Source: an archaeon (GTDB lineage: Archaea > Nanobdellota > Nanobdellia > Pacearchaeales > GW2011-AR1). From it: DNA of 64,000 nt. The notes under the pieces are model-generated. The model searched no databases. It was not told the origin of the DNA and saw nothing but the letters and a program-made list of their open reading frames with translations. Both the position numbers and the translations under genes were made by a program. The stretch spans positions 12,956 through 76,955 of the forward strand of contig JABIDC010000003.1 of assembly GCA_018651925.1 (NCBI GenBank), written 5' to 3'. Shown one piece after another: positions 7,680 through 57,041 of this stretch; positions within the stretch are counted from its first letter, which is position 1; each line of letters starts with the position of its first letter.

Positions 7680-9944
7680 TTACTTCTTATTAGAAACTTT
7701 CTTTTTCTCAACTTTTTTCTCAATCTTTGGTTCTTCTTTGGGCAAATCTTTAGGCATATTTTTCATCAACTCAGCCATGTCTGGCATGCCTGGTTGTTCC
7801 ATTCCAAAATTGTTTTTTCGATTATCTACTTTTACTTTTTGTTTTTTAACTTCTTCATAAGCTAAATCAAAATCTTTTTTACTAATTGTTAATTTTTTAT
7901 TTTCAGATTTAAAATTTCTCTTAATGGCATTAATTCCAGCATTTCTTGCAACAGCCTCAATATCCGCACCAGTAAATCCTTCAGAAGATTTAGCATAGAT
8001 CAAAACATCTATTCCTTTTTCTAAGGGCATATTCTTTGTATGAACTTTAAAAATTTCTTCACGTGTTTTCAAATCTGGAATACTCAATTCAACAATTGCA
8101 TCGATCCTTCCAGGACGAAGTAAAGCAGAATCAATTAAATCATGACGATTAGTCGCTGCAATAATCATTACATCTCCTAATTCTTCAACTCCATCTAACT
8201 CAGTTAATAATTGATTAACAATCTTTTCAGAAGAATCACTTCCAGCACCACTCCCTCTTGCTTTTGAAATTGAATCAAACTCATCAAAGAAAATAATTGC
8301 AGGTGCAACTTGTTTTGCTTTCTTAAAAATCTCTCGAACATGTTTTTCACTTTCTCCAACCCATTTTGAAACTAATTCTGGTCCTTTAATTGAAATAAAA
8401 TTTGCATTTGCTTCTGTAGCAACTGCCTTTGCCAAAAGGGTCTTTCCAGTTCCAGGTGGCCCAGTAAGTAAAACTCCTTTCGAAGGTTTAATTCCTGCTT
8501 GCAAATATAAATCTGGACGCATTAAAGGCAACTCAACTAATTCTCTTAATTTTTCTTTTGCTTCTTGCAATCCTCCAACATCAGACCAATGAACATGAGG
8601 TTTCTTAATCAAAACTTCTCGCATTGCAGAAGGTTCCACCTGTTTTAATGCTTGAATAAAATTATCTTTTGAAACAGTAATTTTTTCTAACTCTTCTGCA
8701 GGAATTTTTTCATCTAAATTCTTAAACTTTGCCAAATGAGGTTTCAAGGCCTTCATTCCTGCTTCCTTACATAAAACTTCTAAATCTGCTCCAGTATATC
8801 CAATTGTTTTTATTGCAAGTTCATTAAAATCTACATCTTTTTCTAAAGGCATTCCCCGAGTATGAATTTGTAAAATTTCATAACGTCCTTCTTCACTAGG
8901 AGGATTAATTCTAAGTTCCCTATCAAACCTTCCTGGACGTCGAAGTGCTTCATCAATATCATCTGGACGATTCGTTGCAGCCATCACAACAATTTGTCCA
9001 CGAGATTTAAGTCCGTCCATAATTGTTAAAAGTTGTGCAACAATTCTTTTCTCGGTTTGATCAGTTCCTTCTCCCCTCTTCGGAGCAATAGAATCAATTT
9101 CATCGATAAAAATAATTGCAGGAGAATTCTTTTGAGCTTTTTCAAAAACTTCACGAATATGCTTTTCACTTTCTCCATAATATTTGCTCATGATTTCTGG
9201 ACCAGCAATTGAATAAAAATTTGCTTCAGTTTCAGTTGCAACCGCTTTTGCTAAAAGAGTTTTTCCCGTTCCAGGTGGCCCAGTAAGTAAAACTCCTTTT
9301 GGAGCCCCAACACCAAGACGTTCAAAAACTTCTGGTTGTTTCATTGGCAATTCTACCATTTCTCTCACTAGTTCAATTTCATCTTTCAATCCACCAATAT
9401 CTTCATAATAAATTCCAGGCGTCGCACCTTCTCCAGAATCAACATCATCACTAACCACAATCTTTGTTGAAGGCCCAACAATAACCCCTTTTCCTTTAGG
9501 CATAACTTTTGAAACAACATAATTTAATCTTGTTCCAAAAACATCAATAACTAATTTTTGTCCGGGAATTAAAGGTTTATCTAAAAGTTTCGTGTGAAAA
9601 TATTCTGTAGGATTATCACTAAACTTTATTCCTTCTTGAGTTGGAGACAAGGTAATTGATTTTGCAACAATTGTTTCAACTTTTTTTATTATTATATCTT
9701 CTCCAATTGTAGCCCCAATTGTTGAACGAATTGTTCCATCAAGACGAACTGCTCCGGTTGTAAGTTCTTCCCCAAACGCACGCATAACTTTTACAATAAC
9801 TGATTTTTTTCCTTTAATCTCAATTAAATCTCCTGGGACTAATTTCATTGCGTCTAAATCTTTTGTTAAAATTCTAGCGATTCCTTTATCAATATCTTCT
9901 TGCATAGATTCTGCAACTCTCAAATTAAAATCTTTTTCTACCAT
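7680..9944 (-). CDS. Cdc48/VCP/p97-type AAA+ ATPase (copy 1)
   Basis: 754 aa. N-domain plus two AAA modules, each with Walker A GPPGTGKT, Walker B IIFIDE/IIFFDE and the SRH region. Lys-rich C-terminal tail. Confidence 0.95.
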   Translation of the reverse strand: MVEKDFNLRVAESMQEDIDKGIARILTKDLDAMKLVPGDLIEIKGKKSVIVKVMRAFGEELTTGAVRLDGTIRSTIGATIGEDIIIKKVETIVAKSITLSPTQEGIKFSDNPTEYFHTKLLDKPLIPGQKLVIDVFGTRLNYVVSKVMPKGKGVIVGPSTKIVVSDDVDSGEGATPGIYYEDIGGLKDEIELVREMVELPMKQPEVFERLGVGAPKGVLLTGPPGTGKTLLAKAVATETEANFYSIAGPEIMSKYYGESEKHIREVFEKAQKNSPAIIFIDEIDSIAPKRGEGTDQTEKRIVAQLLTIMDGLKSRGQIVVMAATNRPDDIDEALRRPGRFDRELRINPPSEEGRYEILQIHTRGMPLEKDVDFNELAIKTIGYTGADLEVLCKEAGMKALKPHLAKFKNLDEKIPAEELEKITVSKDNFIQALKQVEPSAMREVLIKKPHVHWSDVGGLQEAKEKLRELVELPLMRPDLYLQAGIKPSKGVLLTGPPGTGKTLLAKAVATEANANFISIKGPELVSKWVGESEKHVREIFKKAKQVAPAIIFFDEFDSISKARGSGAGSDSSEKIVNQLLTELDGVEELGDVMIIAATNRHDLIDSALLRPGRIDAIVELSIPDLKTREEIFKVHTKNMPLEKGIDVLIYAKSSEGFTGADIEAVARNAGINAIKRNFKSENKKLTISKKDFDLAYEEVKKQKVKVDNRKNNFGMEQPGMPDMAELMKNMPKDLPKEEPKIEKKVEKKKVSNKK

Positions 9945-10321
9945 TATTTCCGTTTAAACTTTACCTCCAATACTCCATTTTTGAATGTCTTTTGAAATTC
10001 TTTATGTTTAACAAAACTAGGTAATTCTTTTTTAAATTCAACTCCACGAATAAGTTTTTCTTTAAGATAAGGTTGAACTTCAGCAAGTTTTTCTTTAACT
10101 GCTTTTACAAAAATTTCATTCTTTGTTATCTCAACCTTAACATCATCAAAAGAATAACCAGGAATTTCAAAAACAAAATAAACTTCTTTTCCTTGTTCAA
10201 TAAAATCAATTACTCTTTCTTCTTGTTCACCAGTAATAACTCTTTTTCTTCGGGTCGTAGGCCTTCCACCAAATAATTCATTTACCATTTCATCGAATCC
10301 TTCATCTCCAAAAAAGCTCAT
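9944..10321 (-). CDS. small heat-shock protein (Hsp20/alpha-crystallin family)
   Basis: 125 aa. EVYFVFEIPGYSFDDVKVEITKNEIFVKA ... FKNGVLEVKFKRK. Its start overlaps the upstream Cdc48 stop (ATGA), and its stop overlaps the downstream Cdc48 start (TAATG). Confidence 0.85.
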   Translation of the reverse strand: MSFFGDEGFDEMVNELFGGRPTTRRKRVITGEQEERVIDFIEQGKEVYFVFEIPGYSFDDVKVEITKNEIFVKAVKEKLAEVQPYLKEKLIRGVEFKKELPSFVKHKEFQKTFKNGVLEVKFKRK

Positions 10322-12621
10322 CCTAAATAACTCCCTGAACTCGGAATCGCAGCCTTAGCTGACTTCAAAAAGTTCTCTTCAATTTTTTTATAAGCTTCCA
10401 ATGTTTCTTTTGTTACACTTGATTTAATTTTTGTTAATGCTTTTGTAAAATGTTTCTTTGTCACAACTTCAGATTTCAAATTTTCTCTTAAAGCAATCAT
10501 TGCAGCTTCACGAGATAATGCTTCCAAATCCGCACCAGTAAAACCAACTGTTTCTTTTGCAATCAAATTGATATTTACATCTTTTTCCAAAGGCATATTT
10601 TTTGTATGAATCTTCAAGATCTTTTCTCGACCAATTTCTTCTGGCGCATTTACCAAAAGCATCTTATCAAAGCGACCAGGCCTTAATAATGCTGTGTCTA
10701 ACATATCCGGTCTGTTCGTAGCAGCCACAACCAAAATATCATTCATTTCTTCAAGCCCATCCATCTCTGCAAGCATTTGATTCAAAACTCTTTCTGTAAC
10801 TTTTCCCCCTTGATCATTTCCTCGCTTCCCAGCCAAAGAATCAATTTCATCAAAAAAGATCACACAAGGAGAAACTTGTCTCGCACGTTCGAAAATTTTT
10901 CTCATTCCTTCTTCAGATTTTCCAACCCACATAGAAAGTAATGAAGGTCCCTTCACTTGAATAAAATTTGCTTCAGATTCTTTTGCAACTGCCTTTGCAA
11001 GCAAAGTCTTTCCAGTTCCAGGAGGACCATAAAGTAAAATTCCTCGACTAGGACGAATTCCCATTCTCTTGAAACTATCTGCATATTTCATTGGCCATTC
11101 AACTGCTTCATTTAATTCTTGCTTAATCGAATCTAAACCTCCGACATCACTCCAATCTACATTTGGAGTTTCAACCAAAACTTCTCTCATCGCAGAAGGT
11201 CGAACAATCTTTAATGCAGCATCAAAATCTTCTTTTTTAATAATTAATTTCTCTAAAACTTCTGATGCAATTTCTTCTTCAGACAATTTAATATCTGGCA
11301 ATAATTTTCTCAAAACATTCATCGCAGCTTCCTTACATAAAGACTCTAAATCTGCACCAACAAAACCATGTGTAACAGAAGCTAAATATTCTAAATCTAC
11401 TGTATTCTCTAAAGGCATTCCACGAGTATGAATTTTCAAAACTTGTAATCTTCCTTTTTTACTTGGAACTCCAACTTCAATTTCTCGATCAAATCTTCCA
11501 GGACGCCTTAAGGCAGAATCAAGAGCATTAATTCTATTTGTAGCTCCAATAACAATAACTCTTCCACGAGATTTCAAACCATCCATCATTGTCAAAATTT
11601 GAGAAACAACTCTTCTTTCAACTTCTCCTTGAACATCTTCTCTCTTAGGGGCAATAGCATCAATTTCATCAATAAAAATAATTGAAGGAGCATTAACTTC
11701 TGCATCCTCAAAAATAGAACGAATCTTTTTTTCAGATTCCCCATAAAATTTACTCATAATCTCTGGACCATTAAGTAAAACAAAATTTGCTTCAGTTTCA
11801 GTTGCAACCGCTTTTGCTAAAAGAGTCTTTCCTGTTCCAGGAGGACCATGTAACAAAACTCCTTTAGGAGGTTCAACTCCAAGTTTTTGAAAAATCTCTG
11901 GGTGCTTCATTGGAATTTCAACCATTTCCCGAATCTTTTTTATTTCTTCATCCAATCCTCCAATATCTTCATAATTAATTTCAGGGATTTTTTCATCAAG
12001 CATTTCAACTGCTTTTGAATTCAAAACAACTTCAGTATTTTCAGAAATAAAAACAGGTTTATTTGGATCAGCATTTACAACAACAAATTTTAATTGAGTA
12101 ATTCCCCCTCCAAGATTTCCCATTCCACCAAAAGAGTCAAGCAAGTTTCCAAAAATATCTCCCATATCACCCATATCACCCATTAAATCTTTTCTTCTTT
12201 GCACTCCCCCCAATACAACCAAATCTCCTTTAACCAAAGTTCTTCCAAGCAAACCTTTCCTAAGATTATCTGAATCTCCTTGGACCATTATTCCTTTTTG
12301 TGCGGGTGCAATTGTAATTTTTTTAGCTTCCTTCATTTCCACAGAATCAATTTCTACAAAATCTCCAATTCCAGTCTTAGCATTACGTCTTAAAATTCCA
12401 TCAATACGGATAATTCCTTCCCCCACATCTGCAGGATAAGCCCGATCAACAATTGCCACAGTTGTTCTACTTCCTTTAATCAAAATTGAATCTCCACGAC
12501 TAACTCCCAATTTTTCCATTATGGATTTATCAATTCTTGCGATACCTTTGTAAGCATCATCTTGCAAAGCTTCAACAACTTTCAATTCGATTTGTTTATT
12601 CTTCTCCATTTTCTTTTCCAA
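10318..12621 (-). CDS. Cdc48/VCP/p97-type AAA+ ATPase (copy 2)
   Basis: 767 aa. Two AAA modules (GPPGTGKT twice). The N-domain carries a Gly/Met/Asp-rich insert ([26 protein letters not shown]). Confidence 0.95.
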
Positions 12622-14080: not shown

Positions 14081-14155
14081 GGCTTCGTAGCTCAGCCTGG
14101 TCAGAGCACTAGACTCTTAATCTAGGTGTCGAGGGTTCAAATCCCTTCGGGGCCA
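14081..14155 (+). tRNA. tRNA-Lys (anticodon CUU)
   Basis: 75-nt cloverleaf folded by hand: acceptor GGCTTCG/CGGGGCC (two G-U pairs), D arm GCTC/GAGC, anticodon arm CTAGA-CTCTTAA-TCTAG, T arm GAGGG-TTCAAAT-CCCTT, discriminator A. No encoded CCA. Confidence 0.9.
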
Positions 14156-14173
14156 TAATCTTTATTTTTATTT
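14144..14173 (+). repeat. direct repeat copy 1 (last 12 nt of tRNA-Lys plus 18-nt T-rich trailer)
   Basis: CCTTCGGGGCCATAATCTTTATTTTTATTT is identical to 14248-14277. Confidence 0.9.
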
Positions 14174-14247
14174 GAACCTTGGTTTGGTGGCTGAAATTTA
14201 TTTCAGATGCCAGGCGAAAATTCCCCAAAGAATTTTCAGCCCAAAAA
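14174..14247 (+). other. conserved tRNA-trailer element (two hairpins), homologous to 43086-43164 on the minus strand
   Basis: Hairpins at 14191-14206 and 14213-14241. The 5' core ATTTGAACCTTGGTTTGGTGGCTGAAATTTATTTCAGATGCCAGGCGAAAATT matches about 46 of 55 hand-aligned positions of the element downstream of tRNA-Ile. Confidence 0.6.
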
Positions 14248-14277
14248 CCTTCGGGGCCATAATCTTTATTTTTATTT
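14248..14277 (+). repeat. direct repeat copy 2 (copy of the tRNA-Lys 3' end plus trailer)
   Basis: Exact 30-nt copy of 14144-14173, located 104 nt downstream. Confidence 0.9.
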
Positions 14278-14325: not shown

Positions 14326-15189
14326 TTAATCCATCTTACAAGCATAAGTCACATGATTACTAACATGTAAAGGAGAAGAGGCACAATCTAAATTAAATCT
14401 TGCCGCATCTTCATAAAATGTGGCAACCACCCCCTCTTGAAATGGGACATATCTCATAGAACCTGCACTTCCCCCAACCTCTTTTGCATCCCTTGGCAAT
14501 CCAGAAGGATTATTGTTTCGTACCCACTCAGCAAAACTTACAAAGCTCGTCCCAGATTTTTTTGGAGCCTTAAAATCTGGACCAGAAAACGAAGTTGCAC
14601 CAACACAAAAATTCTTTGAACCAAAAAATAAATCTCTTCCAACTCTTCTCGCTCGAGCATTTAACCAAATTCTTGGAAAATCTTTTCTCAAAGGACCAGA
14701 ATAATATGTTGAATCCTTACCAAACTTTGAAACTTTCTGAAATTCTCTAAATTGAGAAATGTTTGGCATAAAAAATCCCTTATCATGTAATTTTTCAATA
14801 GATTCTTCCCAAGAATAATTTGACAAAAAAGGATGAGAAGAAATTTTGATTCCTGAATCAGGCAAATAAATAAAAGTAGAATTTTGGCCTTCATTTTTTG
14901 AAGCATAAATCATTTCAGTAATTCCAAAAATAACCTCTGGATCAAATTCCCTCACCTCGTTTTCTTCCAACAATTTTTTTGCAAGATCAGAAGCAGAAGG
15001 ATCTCCAGAATCTCCTGCAATTTTCCTCAAAAAAGTAGCATTCCATTGAAGATTTCTTCCCAAAATCTTAATCGCCATAAGTCTATCCTCAGCACGAACT
15101 CCATTTTTCGCGATATCCTCTAATTTTACATCATCTAAAGAAGACAATTCTCTTCCATTCAAACCATTTAAGAATTCTTCATTATCCAT
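14326..15189 (-). CDS. hypothetical protein, paralogue of 17771..18397
   Basis: 287 aa. The C-terminal block SFAEWVRNNNPSGLP...EGVVATFYEDAARFNLDCASSPLHVSNHV aligns with SLDSWLNDNSKQGLP...EGAVARFYADPFRSGLGCEGHPLYSNSF of the other ORF. Confidence 0.6.
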   Translation of the reverse strand: MDNEEFLNGLNGRELSSLDDVKLEDIAKNGVRAEDRLMAIKILGRNLQWNATFLRKIAGDSGDPSASDLAKKLLEENEVREFDPEVIFGITEMIYASKNEGQNSTFIYLPDSGIKISSHPFLSNYSWEESIEKLHDKGFFMPNISQFREFQKVSKFGKDSTYYSGPLRKDFPRIWLNARARRVGRDLFFGSKNFCVGATSFSGPDFKAPKKSGTSFVSFAEWVRNNNPSGLPRDAKEVGGSAGSMRYVPFQEGVVATFYEDAARFNLDCASSPLHVSNHVTYACKMD

Positions 15190-42419: not shown

Positions 42420-43061
42420 ATGTTTAATAAAGACAAATGTCCAAAATGTGAAAAAAAAGTTAATAAAAATAATAGCTTTTGCTCTAATTGTGGAAAACAA
42501 TTAAGAGAGATAAAAATGAAAAAGAATGGTATGCTCGGAGAAAATGATTTTATTGAAAATAAACAAACAAATTCAAATGGCATTCTGGGCAACTTAAATG
42601 ATAAAATGTTAAATAAAATGTTAAATGGGGCAATGAAAATGTTGGAAAAGGAAATGCAAAAGGGAATGCAAGGAGATTTAAAAAAAATGCCAAAAACTAA
42701 AGTTAAAATAATGCTTAATGGAAAAGAACTTGGTTTGAATGGCGCACCCAAGGTTGTTCAAAATCAACCAAAAAAAATTATTCTCCCAAAAAGAATTCTA
42801 AAAAATTTTGCAAATCTAAGAAAAACAGAACCAAAAACAAAACTAAAAAGATTAGGAGACACAATAATTTATGAAATTGAACTGCCCCAAGTAGAATCAA
42901 TAGAAAACATTTCAATTATTCAATTAGAAAGCAGTATTGAAATAAAAGCAGTTTCAAAAGAAAATGCATATTCAAAATTAATTCCAATTAATCTTCCAAT
43001 TACTAATTTTAATTTCTCAAATGAAAAACTAATTCTTGAAATGAATCAAATTCAAAATTAA
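42420..43061 (+). CDS. zinc-ribbon protein with C-terminal Hsp20/alpha-crystallin-like domain
   Basis: CPKCEKK...CSNCGK ribbon, a Met/Lys/Asn-rich linker, and C-terminal IYEIELPQVESIENISIIQLESSIEIKAVS...EKLILEM. Confidence 0.55.
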   Translation: MFNKDKCPKCEKKVNKNNSFCSNCGKQLREIKMKKNGMLGENDFIENKQTNSNGILGNLNDKMLNKMLNGAMKMLEKEMQKGMQGDLKKMPKTKVKIMLNGKELGLNGAPKVVQNQPKKIILPKRILKNFANLRKTEPKTKLKRLGDTIIYEIELPQVESIENISIIQLESSIEIKAVSKENAYSKLIPINLPITNFNFSNEKLILEMNQIQN

Positions 43062-43065
43062 AATT

Positions 43066-43085
43066 AGGCTGCACGGATTGAGCCG
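43066..43085 (-). repeat. degenerate copy of the tRNA-Ile 3' end
   Basis: The minus strand reads CGGCTCAATCCGTGCAGCCT, versus CGGTTCAAATCCGTGCAGCCT in the tRNA. The 14-nt core AATCCGTGCAGCCT is exact (43066-79 versus 43167-80). Confidence 0.8.
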
Positions 43086-43164
43086 AATATTTATTACAGA
43101 AATATTCGACATGGCACCTGAAAATAAATTTCATTCACCAAACAATGTTCAAATCCTAAAAAAA
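43086..43164 (-). other. conserved tRNA-trailer element (two hairpins), homologous to 14174-14247
   Basis: The minus strand reads T7-AGGATTTGAACATTGTTTGGTGAATGAAATTTATTTTCAGGTGCCATGTCGAATATTTCTGTAATAAATATTCGGC. Hairpins at 43119-43133 and 43082-43110. Confidence 0.6.
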
Positions 43165-43239
43165 TGAGGCTGCACGGATTTGAACCGTGGACCCCTGCCT
43201 TATCAGAGCAGTGCTCTAGCCAGACTGAGCTACAGCCTC
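43165..43239 (-). tRNA. tRNA-Ile (anticodon GAU)
   Basis: 75-nt cloverleaf folded by hand: GAGGCTG/CAGCCTC acceptor, anticodon arm CTGCT-CTGATAA-GGCAG, T arm CACGG-TTCAAAT-CCGTG, discriminator A. Confidence 0.9.
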
Positions 43240-43262
43240 ATATATTTATGAAATAAGATGTT

Positions 43263-43274
43263 GGTTATTTAAAG
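43263..43274 (-). promoter_or_regulatory. TATA-like box for tRNA-Ile
   Basis: The minus strand reads CTTTAAATAACC, centred about 30 nt upstream of the tRNA 5' end. Confidence 0.45.
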
Positions 43275-43301
43275 CTTTTTATAAAAATAATAACCCAAAC
43301 G

Positions 43302-43311
43302 CTTTTAAATG
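43302..43311 (+). promoter_or_regulatory. TATA-like box for rpl15e
   Basis: CTTTTAAATG is centred about 25 nt upstream of the ATG at 43331 (leaderless-type spacing). Confidence 0.45.
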
Positions 43312-43330
43312 AATTTTTTCTAAATACATC

Positions 43331-49383: not shown

Positions 49384-51285
49384 TTATTCAAATCTAACCT
49401 TCCTAAATCCTCGAATATTTTTTATTCTTTTTACTAACTTTACAACTTCATTAAGTTTTCTTGGAACAATAACAAATGAACACTCCACAAACTCCTCATC
49501 AAGACCCTTAATTGTTGCATCATTTACAATAAATCCTCCATGAATTATTGTATTCAAAAAATCTTTCAAAACTCCTGATCTTTCTTTAGCTTCAACAAAT
49601 ATTTTAATCGGCCGACTAAATTCTTCCTTCCAAGAAACAGGGATGATTTTATCTTTTACTTTTGAAACATAATTACAATCTGTTTTATGAACTAAAACTC
49701 TTTTTTGTGATTTAATAACTCCGACAATTTCTTCCACAGGCATTGGAGAACAACATTTGGCCAAACTAAATTCATAATGATTAAAATCCCTAGAGTAAAC
49801 CAAAGAATCAAAAGAAAGCTTTTCTTTTGAAGAAATAACATAATTTTTATTGATTTCAATATTATCTCTTTTCTTAATTGCTTTCTTAATAAAAGTTTTA
49901 GCTCTTGAAGAAACAACAAATTTTATCCAATGCCTTCTAGGAACTTGTAACTTATTTGTTAAAACCACAACAACATCTCCAGATTTTAATTTCTTCTTCA
50001 ATGGAACAAAAGAACCATTAATCCTTCCAGCAACCGCTTTATTCCCAACTTCTTGATGAACATAATATGCAAAGTCTAAAACAGTAGAACCCTCCGGAAG
50101 TTCAATTGCTTTTCCCTTAGGAGTATAACAATAAACCTTTTCCCCAAAAATACTTTTTTTAATTGAACCCAATAAATCTCGATCTTCACCTTTTAATTCC
50201 ATTACTGAACGAAGCCAAGAAACCTTCTTCTCAAAACCTAAATCAGATTTCATATTTTTATAAGACCAATGAGCAGCACTACCTTCTTCTGCTTCTTCAT
50301 CCATTCTCTTTGTTCGAATTTGAACTTCAATTTTTTTTGAATCTACAATCAAAATCGTATGCAAAGATTGATATCCATTTGATTTTGGATTAGCAATATA
50401 ATCTTTCAAAAGACCCTGCATTGATTCATATTTTTCATGTAAAATTCCCAAAACATCATAACAATCTTTTTCAGAATTCACAATAATTCTCATTGCAAAA
50501 TGATCCCGATGTAAATCCAAAGGAATTTTTCTTTCAGTAATTTTTTTATAAATACTATAAATTGATTTTTCACGACCCTTGATTTTTACAATTTTCTTTT
50601 TATCTAAACTTCTTCGAATTTCTTGGATAAATAAATCAATAAAATCTTTTCTTTCTTTTTTCGTAGCATCTAAAAATTTTGCAATCTCAAAGTATTTTTT
50701 ATTGTTTAAAATTTTCAAGGAAATATCTTCCAAATTTCTTTTTATTTGTTCTAATCCCAATCTATTTGCTAAAGGAGCATAAATCTCCAGAGATTCATTA
50801 GCAATCCTTTTTTGTTCTCGAATTCCAAAAACAGAAACATCTTTCAAATTCTCTAACTTGTCTGCAAGCTTAACAAAAATAATTCTTGGATCACTCAAAG
50901 TAACAAATAAAACTTTTCTCAATAATTCAGATTCCAAATCTTTATGTTTCGCTTTAATCTCTCTCAATTGTAATTGTCCAAAAACAAGCTCTGAAACAGA
51001 ACCTCCAAATTTCTTCTTTAAATCAGTAATTAAAATATCTTCTTCAACCCCATGTAAAAGCCCAGCCAAAATAACTTCAGAAGATAAATGATTCTCAGCC
51101 AAAATCGCCCCTACTTTCAAATTATGGACAATCAATAACTCCCCATTCAATCTTTTTTCATCAATAAAAACCTCTTCAATAAAAGAGATTGCTTCTTTAA
51201 ATTTAGAAAGCTGTTTTTTTGAATATTTTTCTTTACATAAATCAAAAAATTTATCTTTATATTCCATTAATAATCCAAAAATCAT
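49384..51285 (-). CDS. RelA/SpoT homologue (long RSH: HD-like, synthetase, TGS, Cys-rich, ACT-like domains)
   Basis: Synthetase motifs GREKSIYSIYKK, DHFAMRII, NGYQSLHT, EVQIRT and AAHWSYK. TGS VYCYTPKGKAIELPEGSTVLDFAY. Cys motif CCSPMP...VHKTDC. The HD region reads LLHGVEED and KLADKLENL (HD dyad not intact). Confidence 0.85.
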   Translation of the reverse strand: MIFGLLMEYKDKFFDLCKEKYSKKQLSKFKEAISFIEEVFIDEKRLNGELLIVHNLKVGAILAENHLSSEVILAGLLHGVEEDILITDLKKKFGGSVSELVFGQLQLREIKAKHKDLESELLRKVLFVTLSDPRIIFVKLADKLENLKDVSVFGIREQKRIANESLEIYAPLANRLGLEQIKRNLEDISLKILNNKKYFEIAKFLDATKKERKDFIDLFIQEIRRSLDKKKIVKIKGREKSIYSIYKKITERKIPLDLHRDHFAMRIIVNSEKDCYDVLGILHEKYESMQGLLKDYIANPKSNGYQSLHTILIVDSKKIEVQIRTKRMDEEAEEGSAAHWSYKNMKSDLGFEKKVSWLRSVMELKGEDRDLLGSIKKSIFGEKVYCYTPKGKAIELPEGSTVLDFAYYVHQEVGNKAVAGRINGSFVPLKKKLKSGDVVVVLTNKLQVPRRHWIKFVVSSRAKTFIKKAIKKRDNIEINKNYVISSKEKLSFDSLVYSRDFNHYEFSLAKCCSPMPVEEIVGVIKSQKRVLVHKTDCNYVSKVKDKIIPVSWKEEFSRPIKIFVEAKERSGVLKDFLNTIIHGGFIVNDATIKGLDEEFVECSFVIVPRKLNEVVKLVKRIKNIRGFRKVRFE

Positions 51286-56899: not shown

Positions 56900-56921
56900 G
56901 ACCTAATAGCTCAGTTGGTTA
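56900..56921 (+). repeat. orphan copy of the 5' 22 nt of tRNA-Asn
   Basis: GACCTAATAGCTCAGTTGGTTA versus GACCCGATAGCTCAGTTGGTTA at 56968-56989 (20 of 22 match). Confidence 0.8.
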
Positions 56922-56967
56922 TTATCCACAGAATTTTAACTATCTTCGCTCAAAAGTCAAAACAAAA

Positions 56968-57041
56968 GACCCGATAGCTCAGTTGGTTAGAGCGAACGGC
57001 TGTTAACCGTTAGGTCGCAGGTTCGAGTCCTGCTCGGGTCG
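56968..57041 (+). tRNA. tRNA-Asn (anticodon GUU)
   Basis: 74-nt cloverleaf folded by hand: GACCCGA/TCGGGTC acceptor, anticodon arm AACGG-CTGTTAA-CCGTT, T arm GCAGG-TTCGAGT-CCTGC, discriminator G. Confidence 0.9.

Follow-up and report, generated by a model that had tools for sequence, protein, structure and literature searches.

What kind of DNA separates a complete tRNA-Lys(CUU) gene from an exact second copy of its own 3' end? The question arises in a 64-kb stretch of archaeal DNA (the window, to which all coordinates refer unless a related locus, L0xx, is named), where 74 nt stand between two identical 30-nt segments. tRNA genes are classic landing sites of mobile DNA, and the known elements are large and bring their own recombinase. 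Our analysis shows a gene-less, structured insert (the module) that sits behind different tRNAs with constant polarity and constant boundaries and with a segment of the local tRNA 3' end on both sides. We give about an even chance to the reading that the 74-nt stretch belongs to a family of very small insertion elements, devoid of protein genes, that occur in Pacearchaeota-like DPANN archaea and land downstream of tRNAs with a GGTTCAAATCC T-loop. The parts of the tRNA-Lys locus are, in order:

14081-14155, plus strand: tRNA-Lys(CUU), complete and canonical (ARAGORN; Rfam, 67.3 bits), with the T-loop TTCAAAT at 14136-14142
14144-14173, plus strand: direct repeat copy 1, made of the last 12 nt of tRNA-Lys and an 18-nt T-rich trailer (14156-14173, including a T5 run)
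14170-14178, plus strand: left insert end ATTTGAACC, reverse-complementary to the T-loop (GGTTCAAAT) and sharing its first 4 nt (ATTT) with repeat copy 1
14185-14212, plus strand: hairpin A (fold, pair table), stem of 12 positions, the sixth a constant purine-purine mismatch, and loop TTTA; core CTGAAA/TTTCAG at 14191-14206
14213-14241, plus strand: hairpin B (fold, pair table), an 11-bp stem with one bulged A and the loop CCCAAA
14242-14247, plus strand: right insert end CAAAAA, which resembles the T-loop CAAAT, hence a junction ambiguous by ~4 nt
14248-14277, plus strand: direct repeat copy 2, an exact copy of 14144-14173, with native flank beyond it and then a convergent orphan open reading frame (ORF), 3' end first

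The 30-nt string CCTTCGGGGCCATAATCTTTATTTTTATTT has two exact occurrences, 14144-14173 and 14248-14277, with 74 nt between the copies; if two mismatches are allowed, the repeat extends a further 4-6 nt leftward into the T-loop (CAAATC/CAAAAA). A first-pass annotation of this DNA had described the exact repeat and placed the tRNA end at 14155, and both are borne out by string search and by ARAGORN and Rfam. The two hairpins that it had drawn are predicted by folding at the same positions, and the opening of the insert is indeed the reverse complement of the T-loop that it had pointed out. ATTTGAAC is found seven times on the two strands of the window, two of these being T-loops themselves and two the inverted copies at the tRNA-Lys module and at a second module behind tRNA-Ile. 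No ORF of at least 50 aa lies between the TFS stop codon (14017) and position 14326. The repeat structure is not an assembly artefact, since the tRNA-Lys locus is base-for-base identical in more than 15 contigs of independent assemblies (ENA, JGI, Logan). A strain-level comparison covered more than 20 contigs with an identical TFS or orphan protein, all of them filled and identical.

The second module lies behind tRNA-Ile(GAU) on the other strand:

43165-43239, minus strand: tRNA-Ile(GAU), complete (ARAGORN, Rfam), with the T-loop region GGTTCAAATCC at 43176-43186
43147-43164, minus strand: T7 trailer TTTTTTTAG (43156-43164), then the inverted T-loop GGATTTGAAC (43147-43156)
43112-43140, minus strand: hairpin A of the tRNA-Ile module (fold, pair table)
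43082-43110, minus strand: hairpin B of the tRNA-Ile module (fold, pair table)
43060-43081, minus strand: TCAAT, then a decayed copy of the tRNA-Ile 3' end and of the trailer start, with AATCCGTGCAGCCT exact at 43066-43079

The order of parts is the same as after tRNA-Lys, and the terminal copy belongs to tRNA-Ile, as had been claimed at first reading: it matches the tRNA 3' end at 15 of 16 positions, with one A missing from the loop and a C>A change at position 72, and it abuts the stop codon of a convergent Zn-ribbon ORF (42420-43061). A global alignment of the two modules scores 34, against -8.5 +/- 4.8 for shuffles, and none of 2000 dinucleotide shuffles scores as high; the similarity persists once the common ATTTGAAC is removed. 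The idea of a shared interior with locus-specific flanks thus survives the control with shuffled sequences that had been proposed for it, each module being bracketed by a repeat of its own tRNA. Because ~15% of positions differ between the two modules, yet the Lys repeat is identical at 30 of 30 positions, the Lys insertion looks younger than the split of the modules, a rough age argument that predicts further source copies elsewhere in the genome. Within the window, further copies of tRNA 3' ends, such as serial integrations would leave, were sought and none was found.

Does the fold of the insert matter, as the first-pass annotation had suggested? The tRNA-Lys module has a minimum free energy of -22 kcal/mol (z = -2.4), and the tRNA-Lys and tRNA-Ile modules of the window and that of L048 share one minimum-energy shape on the tRNA-sense strand (z = -2.4, -2.8 and -2.2, respectively). 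This shape consists of an unpaired leader of ~15 nt with the inverted T-loop, then hairpin A (in the prediction, helices of 4-5 and 5-6 bp on either side of a 2x2 internal loop, closed by a loop of 4-5 nt) and then hairpin B (8-11 bp). The sense strand folds more stably than its complement in all four modules. When three modules are set in a hand-curated structural register, compensatory (double) changes that keep the pairing are found at 7 of 23 pairs (positions 2, 9 and 12 of hairpin A; positions 2, 3, 7 and 11 of hairpin B), all three have two mismatched purines at position 6 of hairpin A, and the pair table holds eight G-T pairs, confined to the tRNA-sense strand, and no A-C pair. The compensatory changes, the presence of G-T but not A-C pairs and the greater stability of the sense strand all argue that the predicted structure is conserved and that the strand on which it is read, whether in RNA or in single-stranded DNA, is the tRNA-sense one; the changes in both hairpins lend weight to the earlier suggestion. 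For RNA reading through from the tRNA into the module, RNAfold predicts at both window loci that the anti-T-loop pairs with the T-loop (10-11 bp), that copy 1 is looped out and that copy 2 then becomes the pairing partner of the 5' acceptor strand (z = -3.2 and -3.4); as the program is blind to co-transcriptional folding and to tRNA tertiary contacts, we hold this fold as a possibility and not as a finding.

Relatives were located via neighbouring proteins. The tRNA-Ile site is syntenic among them, with an MFS transporter, a Zn-ribbon protein, tRNA-Ile and L15e, and was found in the following states:

L048/L049/L050, L15e identity 83%: filled; tRNA-Ile, TATTCTTTCTAG, ATTTGAAC, two hairpins, CAAATCCGTGCAGGCTCATA
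L062/L063, L15e identity 83%: filled; tRNA-Ile, T8 trailer, GGATTTGAA, a G+C-richer interior, CAAATCCGTGTAGCCTCATATTT
L051, L15e identity 81%: empty; the stop codon of the convergent gene lies 9 nt past the tRNA
L046/L047 and L080-L089, L15e identity 92% and 81%: tRNA and promoter inverted, without the module
L064, L15e identity 83%: tRNA-Glu at that place
L090, L15e identity 85%: no tRNA within 264 nt

A comparison of filled and empty sites had been suggested with the first reading of the locus, and both are now at hand, the syntenic site being filled in L048 and L062 and empty in L051. The acceptor stems differ by lineage (GAGGCTG/CAGCCTC in the window, GAGCCTG/CAGGCTC in L048, GAGGCTA/TAGCCTC in L062), and in each filled lineage the terminal copy carries the local acceptor variant (CAGCCTC, CAGGCTC and TAGCCTC, respectively). 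Because the terminal copies of diverged modules track lineage-specific acceptor changes, and because an element-borne fragment moving from tRNA-Lys to tRNA-Ile would yield a chimeric, broken tRNA, we infer that the target, not the element, is the source of both repeat copies.

The surroundings of the tRNA-Ile gene vary in other ways as well. In L046/L047 (~1679-1755) and L080-L089, tRNA-Ile and its promoter are flipped relative to Zn-ribbon/L15e when compared with window positions 43165-43330, and in L046 the short inverted repeats AAAGAAAAT / ATTTTCTTT bracket the flipped segment. Since the two orientations do not follow L15e similarity, the tRNA-Ile cassette has probably been flipped more than once. 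In L062 an extra 311-aa ORF without a Pfam match (8772-9707, minus strand) lies between the tRNA-Ile promoter and L15e, which is another sign of an intergenic hotspot.

The tRNA-Lys site has a counterpart in L069 (TFS identity 72%). Here tRNA-Lys(CUU) is followed by TAAAATCCCCCGCGGG and by GAGTTGAAC, an inverted T-loop with one mismatch, and a 1.3-kb insert (10419-11763) lies between the tRNA and AATCCCTCCAGGGCCA, a 16-nt copy of its own tRNA end. The only ORF of the insert codes for 401 aa, with a hydrophobic stretch at the N terminus, NETNETxIEEYSFL repeats and a HEIGH (zincin-like) motif; this ORF has no Pfam or PDB match and no relative in the viral-contig scan.

How regular is the association? 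Eleven distinct tRNA loci were counted. Five carry a direct copy of the tRNA 3' end downstream, and all five have an inverted T-loop 9-mer (at most one mismatch) 10-18 nt after the tRNA; at the six loci without a direct copy the best inverted T-loop match has 2-4 mismatches, i.e. none is positive. The T-loop is TTCAAAT in all five filled tRNAs, and other loops are found in the unoccupied tRNA-Asn (TTCGAGT), tRNA-Glu and tRNA-Gly. In every filled locus the repeat extends from the T-loop across the tRNA 3' end. Inserts with the hairpin module measure 67-78 nt (two in the window, diverged ones in L048 and L062) and lie a few to ~18 nt downstream of the tRNA. Their parts follow one another as the intact tRNA, a T-rich trailer, the inverted T-loop (G)GATTTGAAC, a leader of ~6 nt, hairpins A and B, CAAA(T) and a second, non-functional tRNA segment, which begins in or just past the T-loop and runs into the trailer. 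In the window Lys, window Ile and L062 loci the exact repeat ends at the TTT^AA boundary of the native trailer. Both junctions are ambiguous by 3-5 nt, the left one through ATTT or a T-run and the right one through CAAA(T), and by eye the insert ends form an imperfect inverted match of ~8 nt, between ATTTGAAC at the left end and the right-end sequences TTTTGGGC, ATTGAGC, ATTTGTGC and ATTTGGTC (given as reverse complements). A search of 395 kb with a three-sequence profile gave no module other than those behind tRNAs. The first-pass annotation had asked whether further copies always follow a tRNA gene and end in a copy of it; more copies were found in relatives, each after a tRNA and each ending in that tRNA's copy. 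A tailoring of the anti-T-loop to each tRNA was also considered: the flanks of the inverted T-loop add 1-4 nt of complementarity in the two tRNA-Lys cases, but at these flanks the two window modules differ by a single base, and the idea was not relied on.

How might such an insert come to lie there? The element would be mobilised in trans. Its two staggered joints with the target would lie at the 3' edge of the T-loop and, in the trailer, where a T-run meets an A. Gap repair would then duplicate the tRNA 3' segment, so that the whole tRNA keeps copy 1 and a dead copy 2 stands on the far side. As both repeat copies appear to derive from the target, staggered joining with gap repair would be the simplest mechanism. 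The termini ATTTGRRC ... GYYCAAAT imitate the T-loop and are probable recognition or annealing sites, and the ambiguity at both junctions suggests an annealing step in integration. The two hairpins may act on the tRNA-sense strand, either in single-stranded DNA or in read-through RNA from the tRNA promoter. Precise loss would be permitted by the direct repeats, which would give the empty sites seen in relatives. Among documented mechanisms, casposase/Cas1-type integration is the closest; target-primed reverse transcription or microhomology-mediated template switching during replication would fit the variable repeat length and the microhomologies equally well. A bolder version, which we consider decidedly improbable, holds that the inserts are natural 'mini' elements of an undescribed DPANN integration system that homes to tRNA T-loops by recognising T-psi-C-loop DNA, the sequence mimicked by the element ends, and duplicates up to ~30 bp (the length of a CRISPR repeat), by a Cas1/casposase-like ruler or by an RNA or single-stranded DNA intermediate from the tRNA promoter. 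If true, it would link casposon integration at tRNA genes to CRISPR repeat duplication as an intermediate that still exists today or, alternatively, be the first SINE-like (short interspersed nuclear element) retro-element of archaea.

Several observations weigh against a family of mobile insertion elements. The three tRNA-Ile modules share a trailer difference, copy 2 having TTTAATTTT and copy 1 a plain T-run, and this could reflect one old insertion kept uniform by gene conversion instead of independent insertions. Polymorphism within the population was not seen, every contig of the strain being filled. The L062 variant folds no better than shuffles (z = -0.4) and is too diverged for reliable alignment, and the L069 insert has the layout in common but not the hairpins. 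The exact repeat length varies between 13 and 30 nt (14, 16, 20, 23, 30), unlike that of a fixed-stagger transposase or of the casposase (15 bp). There are only two copies in 64 kb, and exact core-pattern scans of 596 Gb of genomes and of JGI metagenomes gave only the locus itself: 40 matches in genome contigs were all unrelated, mostly a different repeat in contigs of Omnitrophota or the candidate phyla radiation (CPR), and just one of five matches in metagenome contigs was the locus. From these scans, the element family is rare or evolves fast. The window ORFs that were scanned and the gene tables of related loci yielded no transposase, integrase, Cas1 or reverse transcriptase. The mobile or integrative element put forward in the first-pass annotation has thus gained copies, controls and both filled and empty sites in relatives; its mobility and the route of duplication are read from sequence comparison, and no enzyme was found.

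Scans of viral contigs returned only one unrelated palindrome; they covered the module itself, pairs of T-loop and anti-T-loop, strings resembling an attP of tRNA-Lys or tRNA-Ile, and possible relatives of the L069 ORF. The possibility of an enzyme hidden next door was considered for the orphan ORF beside tRNA-Lys and for the L069 ORF, and dropped, neither having a Pfam or PDB match. The orphan ORF (14326-15189, minus strand, 287 aa) lies directly past repeat copy 2 and is convergent with tRNA-Lys; among 5.8 billion proteins its sole match is itself, and it may be lineage-specific cargo adjoining the tRNA.

Could the insert be the remnant of a conventional integrase element? It would then be a scar, or a miniature cis-mobilisable derivative, of a tyrosine-integrase element recombining in the T-loop; the repeat would be the identity of attP and attB and not a target duplication, with copy 1 and the inverted T-loop side as the P' arm and the hairpin side as the P arm. 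The repeat does begin in the T-loop, which is said, after Williams in 2002, to be a known integrase crossover location, and L069 has a cargo-bearing insert of 1.3 kb with the same boundaries. A partial 3' tRNA copy at the far end is the standard archaeal integrase signature (PMC9897764), and the copy-1 trailers of the three tRNA-Ile modules are more alike than they are to their own copy-2 trailers, as expected if the element had brought copy 1. We nevertheless regard this origin as rather unlikely. No integrase was found at any locus among the ORFs scanned and the gene tables, and the search of viral contigs for attP-like sequences was without result. Homologous inserts stand at tRNA-Lys and tRNA-Ile with repeats that are local at each, where an element-borne core would have left a chimeric tRNA, and copy 2 tracks the lineage-specific acceptor changes; in addition, the same 74-nt junction would need two independent deletions. 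Or is the insert not mobile at all, but a structured RNA of the host that is linked to the tRNA, the alternative named at first reading? Read-through of the terminator would give a 3'-trailer RNA with the anti-T-loop as 5' arm and the copy of tRNA positions ~56-73 as 3' arm around two scaffold hairpins; it could base-pair with the cognate tRNA, mature or as pre-tRNA, or drive the precursor into another fold, and the copy would be kept matched by selection or gene conversion. Covariation in both hairpins, G-U pairs on the sense strand only, better folding of that strand in every module and the predicted read-through pairing of anti-T-loop with T-loop and of 5' acceptor with copy 2 (z -3.2, -3.4) all agree with such an RNA, as do the presence of the module in all contigs of the strain and a copy 2 that tracks lineage-specific tRNA variants. 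We judge it unlikely all the same. Runs of T5-T8, which are typical archaeal terminators, stand between tRNA and module at three of the four module loci (the longest run in L048 is T3), and the site is empty or rearranged in close relatives. Copy 2 of tRNA-Ile is decayed (the loop deletion and C>A at position 72), the interior sequence turns over fast and one variant has no significant fold; the read-through fold itself comes from RNAfold, which ignores co-transcriptional folding and tRNA tertiary contacts. In Rfam 15 the tRNA alone reaches the gathering threshold and nothing credible appears for the module up to E = 10, so that no Rfam family matches; by eye, the module has no C/D boxes, no consistently placed H/ACA ACA box and no hammerhead core.

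DPANN archaea are known for atypical tRNA introns, and copy 2 might in principle be the real 3' exon, the insert being a non-canonical intron or alternative 3' exon and the 104 nt from the T-loop to copy 2 being spliced out. Deletion of any 104-nt register inside the repeat does restore the same tRNA, and the minimum-free-energy fold of the read-through RNA uses copy 2 for the acceptor stem. Against this, the tRNA is complete when unspliced (67-69 bits), inspection and predicted folds reveal no bulge-helix-bulge motif at the equivalent junctions, terminator T-runs precede the supposed intron at most loci, copy 2 of tRNA-Ile is mismatched at position 72, and a protein-coding insert of 1.3 kb occupies the same place in L069. 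The intron reading is nearly excluded.

If the 74-nt stretch is taken as a small insertion element, to which known system does it belong? The module is not a member of the integrase-island, casposon, MITE (miniature inverted-repeat transposable element) or intron families, since one defining feature of each was tested and found to be missing; we file it as a tRNA-targeting insertion element. Partial tRNA duplications by themselves are ordinary, being common at integrated elements (PMC9897764). Tyrosine-integrase att islands such as PYG1, with a 44-bp repeat (PMC9897764), resemble it in that a complete tRNA and a partial 3' copy bracket the insert and the partial copy begins inside the tRNA. 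These islands are however 9-23 kb long, with an integrase gene and an element-borne repeat, while the module is a structured 74 nt found on two tRNAs with tRNA-specific repeats, and has neither the integrase gene nor the element-borne core. MITEs are likewise small, non-coding, structured and multicopy, with short inverted termini and a presumed mobilisation in trans, and related small non-coding copies are what we find; but MITEs make short target duplications of fixed length at many sites, and the module makes a long, variable duplication at tRNA 3' flanks only.

Casposons come closer. The minimal target of the casposase is a 15-bp duplicated segment overlapping the tRNA-Pro 3' end together with an adjacent 18-bp T-psi-C-loop segment (PMC5137440). 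A casposon, e.g. that of Aciduliprofundum boonei (PMC5137440), may share with the module a target at a tRNA 3' end with the T-psi-C loop as an upstream 'leader' and a duplication of the adjoining segment into the flank; in both cases the tRNA is left intact, and casposon mini-elements made of the ends alone integrate in vitro (PMC5137440), a likeness to the gene-less module. Casposons are nonetheless multi-kb elements with Cas1 and PolB, whereas the insert contains no ORF and neither Cas1 nor an element-borne PolB, the casposon hallmark, lies nearby. Their duplication of 14-15 bp starts 5 bp before the tRNA end, that of the module at the T-loop with 13-30 nt, and they carry terminal inverted repeats where the module has an imperfect inverted match of ~8 nt. 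We know of no casposon from this lineage. In the repeat duplication by CRISPR Cas1-Cas2, too, a segment of ~30 bp beside a recognition 'leader' is doubled around incoming DNA; the module locus differs in having two repeats only (at least three regular repeats are needed for an array), no cas genes and a 'spacer' that is conserved and structured, not captured foreign DNA. Integron attC sites and the CTX-phi attP are alike in keeping structure with variable sequence, a strand-specific fold and non-Watson-Crick positions, and the attC motifs RYYYAAC and GTTRRRY resemble ATTTGAAC and GTTCAAAT of the module save for one extra base. An attC site, in contrast, forms a single long and imperfect hairpin at a cassette ORF's 3' end without making tRNA-derived direct repeats, and no link of the module to IntI or Xer was seen; we rejected this reading, as the motif likeness needs a 1-nt insertion, the layout differs and there is no integrase.

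The first-pass annotation knew of no described element with this architecture. Partial tRNA duplications (PMC9897764) and the T-psi-C targeting of casposons (PMC5137440) are precedents for parts of it; the whole combination, a two-hairpin insert of ~75 nt with T-loop-mimicking ends on different tRNAs with target-specific repeats, was not found described in the literature searched. If the reading as an insertion element is right, this would be the smallest tRNA-homing element described, which spreads behind different tRNAs, leaves the tRNA intact and has ends that mimic the T-loop. It would also be a possible pointer to an unrecognised integration enzyme in the poorly known DPANN archaea, and since the layout of leader, segment, insert and segment follows a logic common to casposons and CRISPR adaptation, that enzyme would bear on the evolution of this machinery. 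In practical terms, such partial tRNA copies and look-alikes of the T-loop can lead tRNA annotation astray in small archaeal genomes and cause their assemblies to break.

The window itself has a G+C content of 29-34% and contains archaeal housekeeping genes (TFS, ribosomal protein L15e, two CDC48, MCM, TBP, DNA ligase, FtsZ and wyosine enzymes); the nearest database proteins to its ORFs are labelled Pacearchaeota or Nanoarchaeota. ARAGORN and Rfam identify three tRNA genes, tRNA-Lys(CUU) at 14081-14155 (plus strand), tRNA-Ile(GAU) at 43165-43239 (minus strand) and tRNA-Asn(GUU) at 56968-57041 (plus strand). Part of the 5' end of the last gene recurs 68 nt upstream of it, GACCTAATAGCTCAGTTGGTTA (56900-56921) matching GACCCGATAGCTCAGTTGGTTA (56968-56989) at 20 of 22 positions, with a TATA-like AT-rich box ahead of each. 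This duplication (56900-56989) has neither a hairpin module nor an inverted T-loop and looks like an old tandem copying of the promoter and the first 22 nt.

The dispersed repeat met in the core-pattern scans occurs in L008, L014, L021, L031, L033, L034, L037, L038 and L040, which are unrelated bacterial contigs (Omnitrophota, 'Elusimicrobia' AUK224, Patescibacteria). It consists of ATTTGGTGCTTGG/GGAATTT-type units ending in GGTGCTTGAAATTTATTT, with several copies per genome, often near hairpins. Elsewhere in the window, a 633-aa RelA/SpoT homologue with HD_4, RelA_SpoT and TGS domains is encoded at 49384-51285 (minus strand); the host is apparently a DPANN archaeon, and archaea seldom have long (p)ppGpp synthetase/hydrolase enzymes. 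At 7680-12621 (minus strand) two CDC48-type AAA ATPases of 754 and 767 aa enclose a small HSP20-like ORF (9944-10321), an order that is kept in the contigs of the strain.

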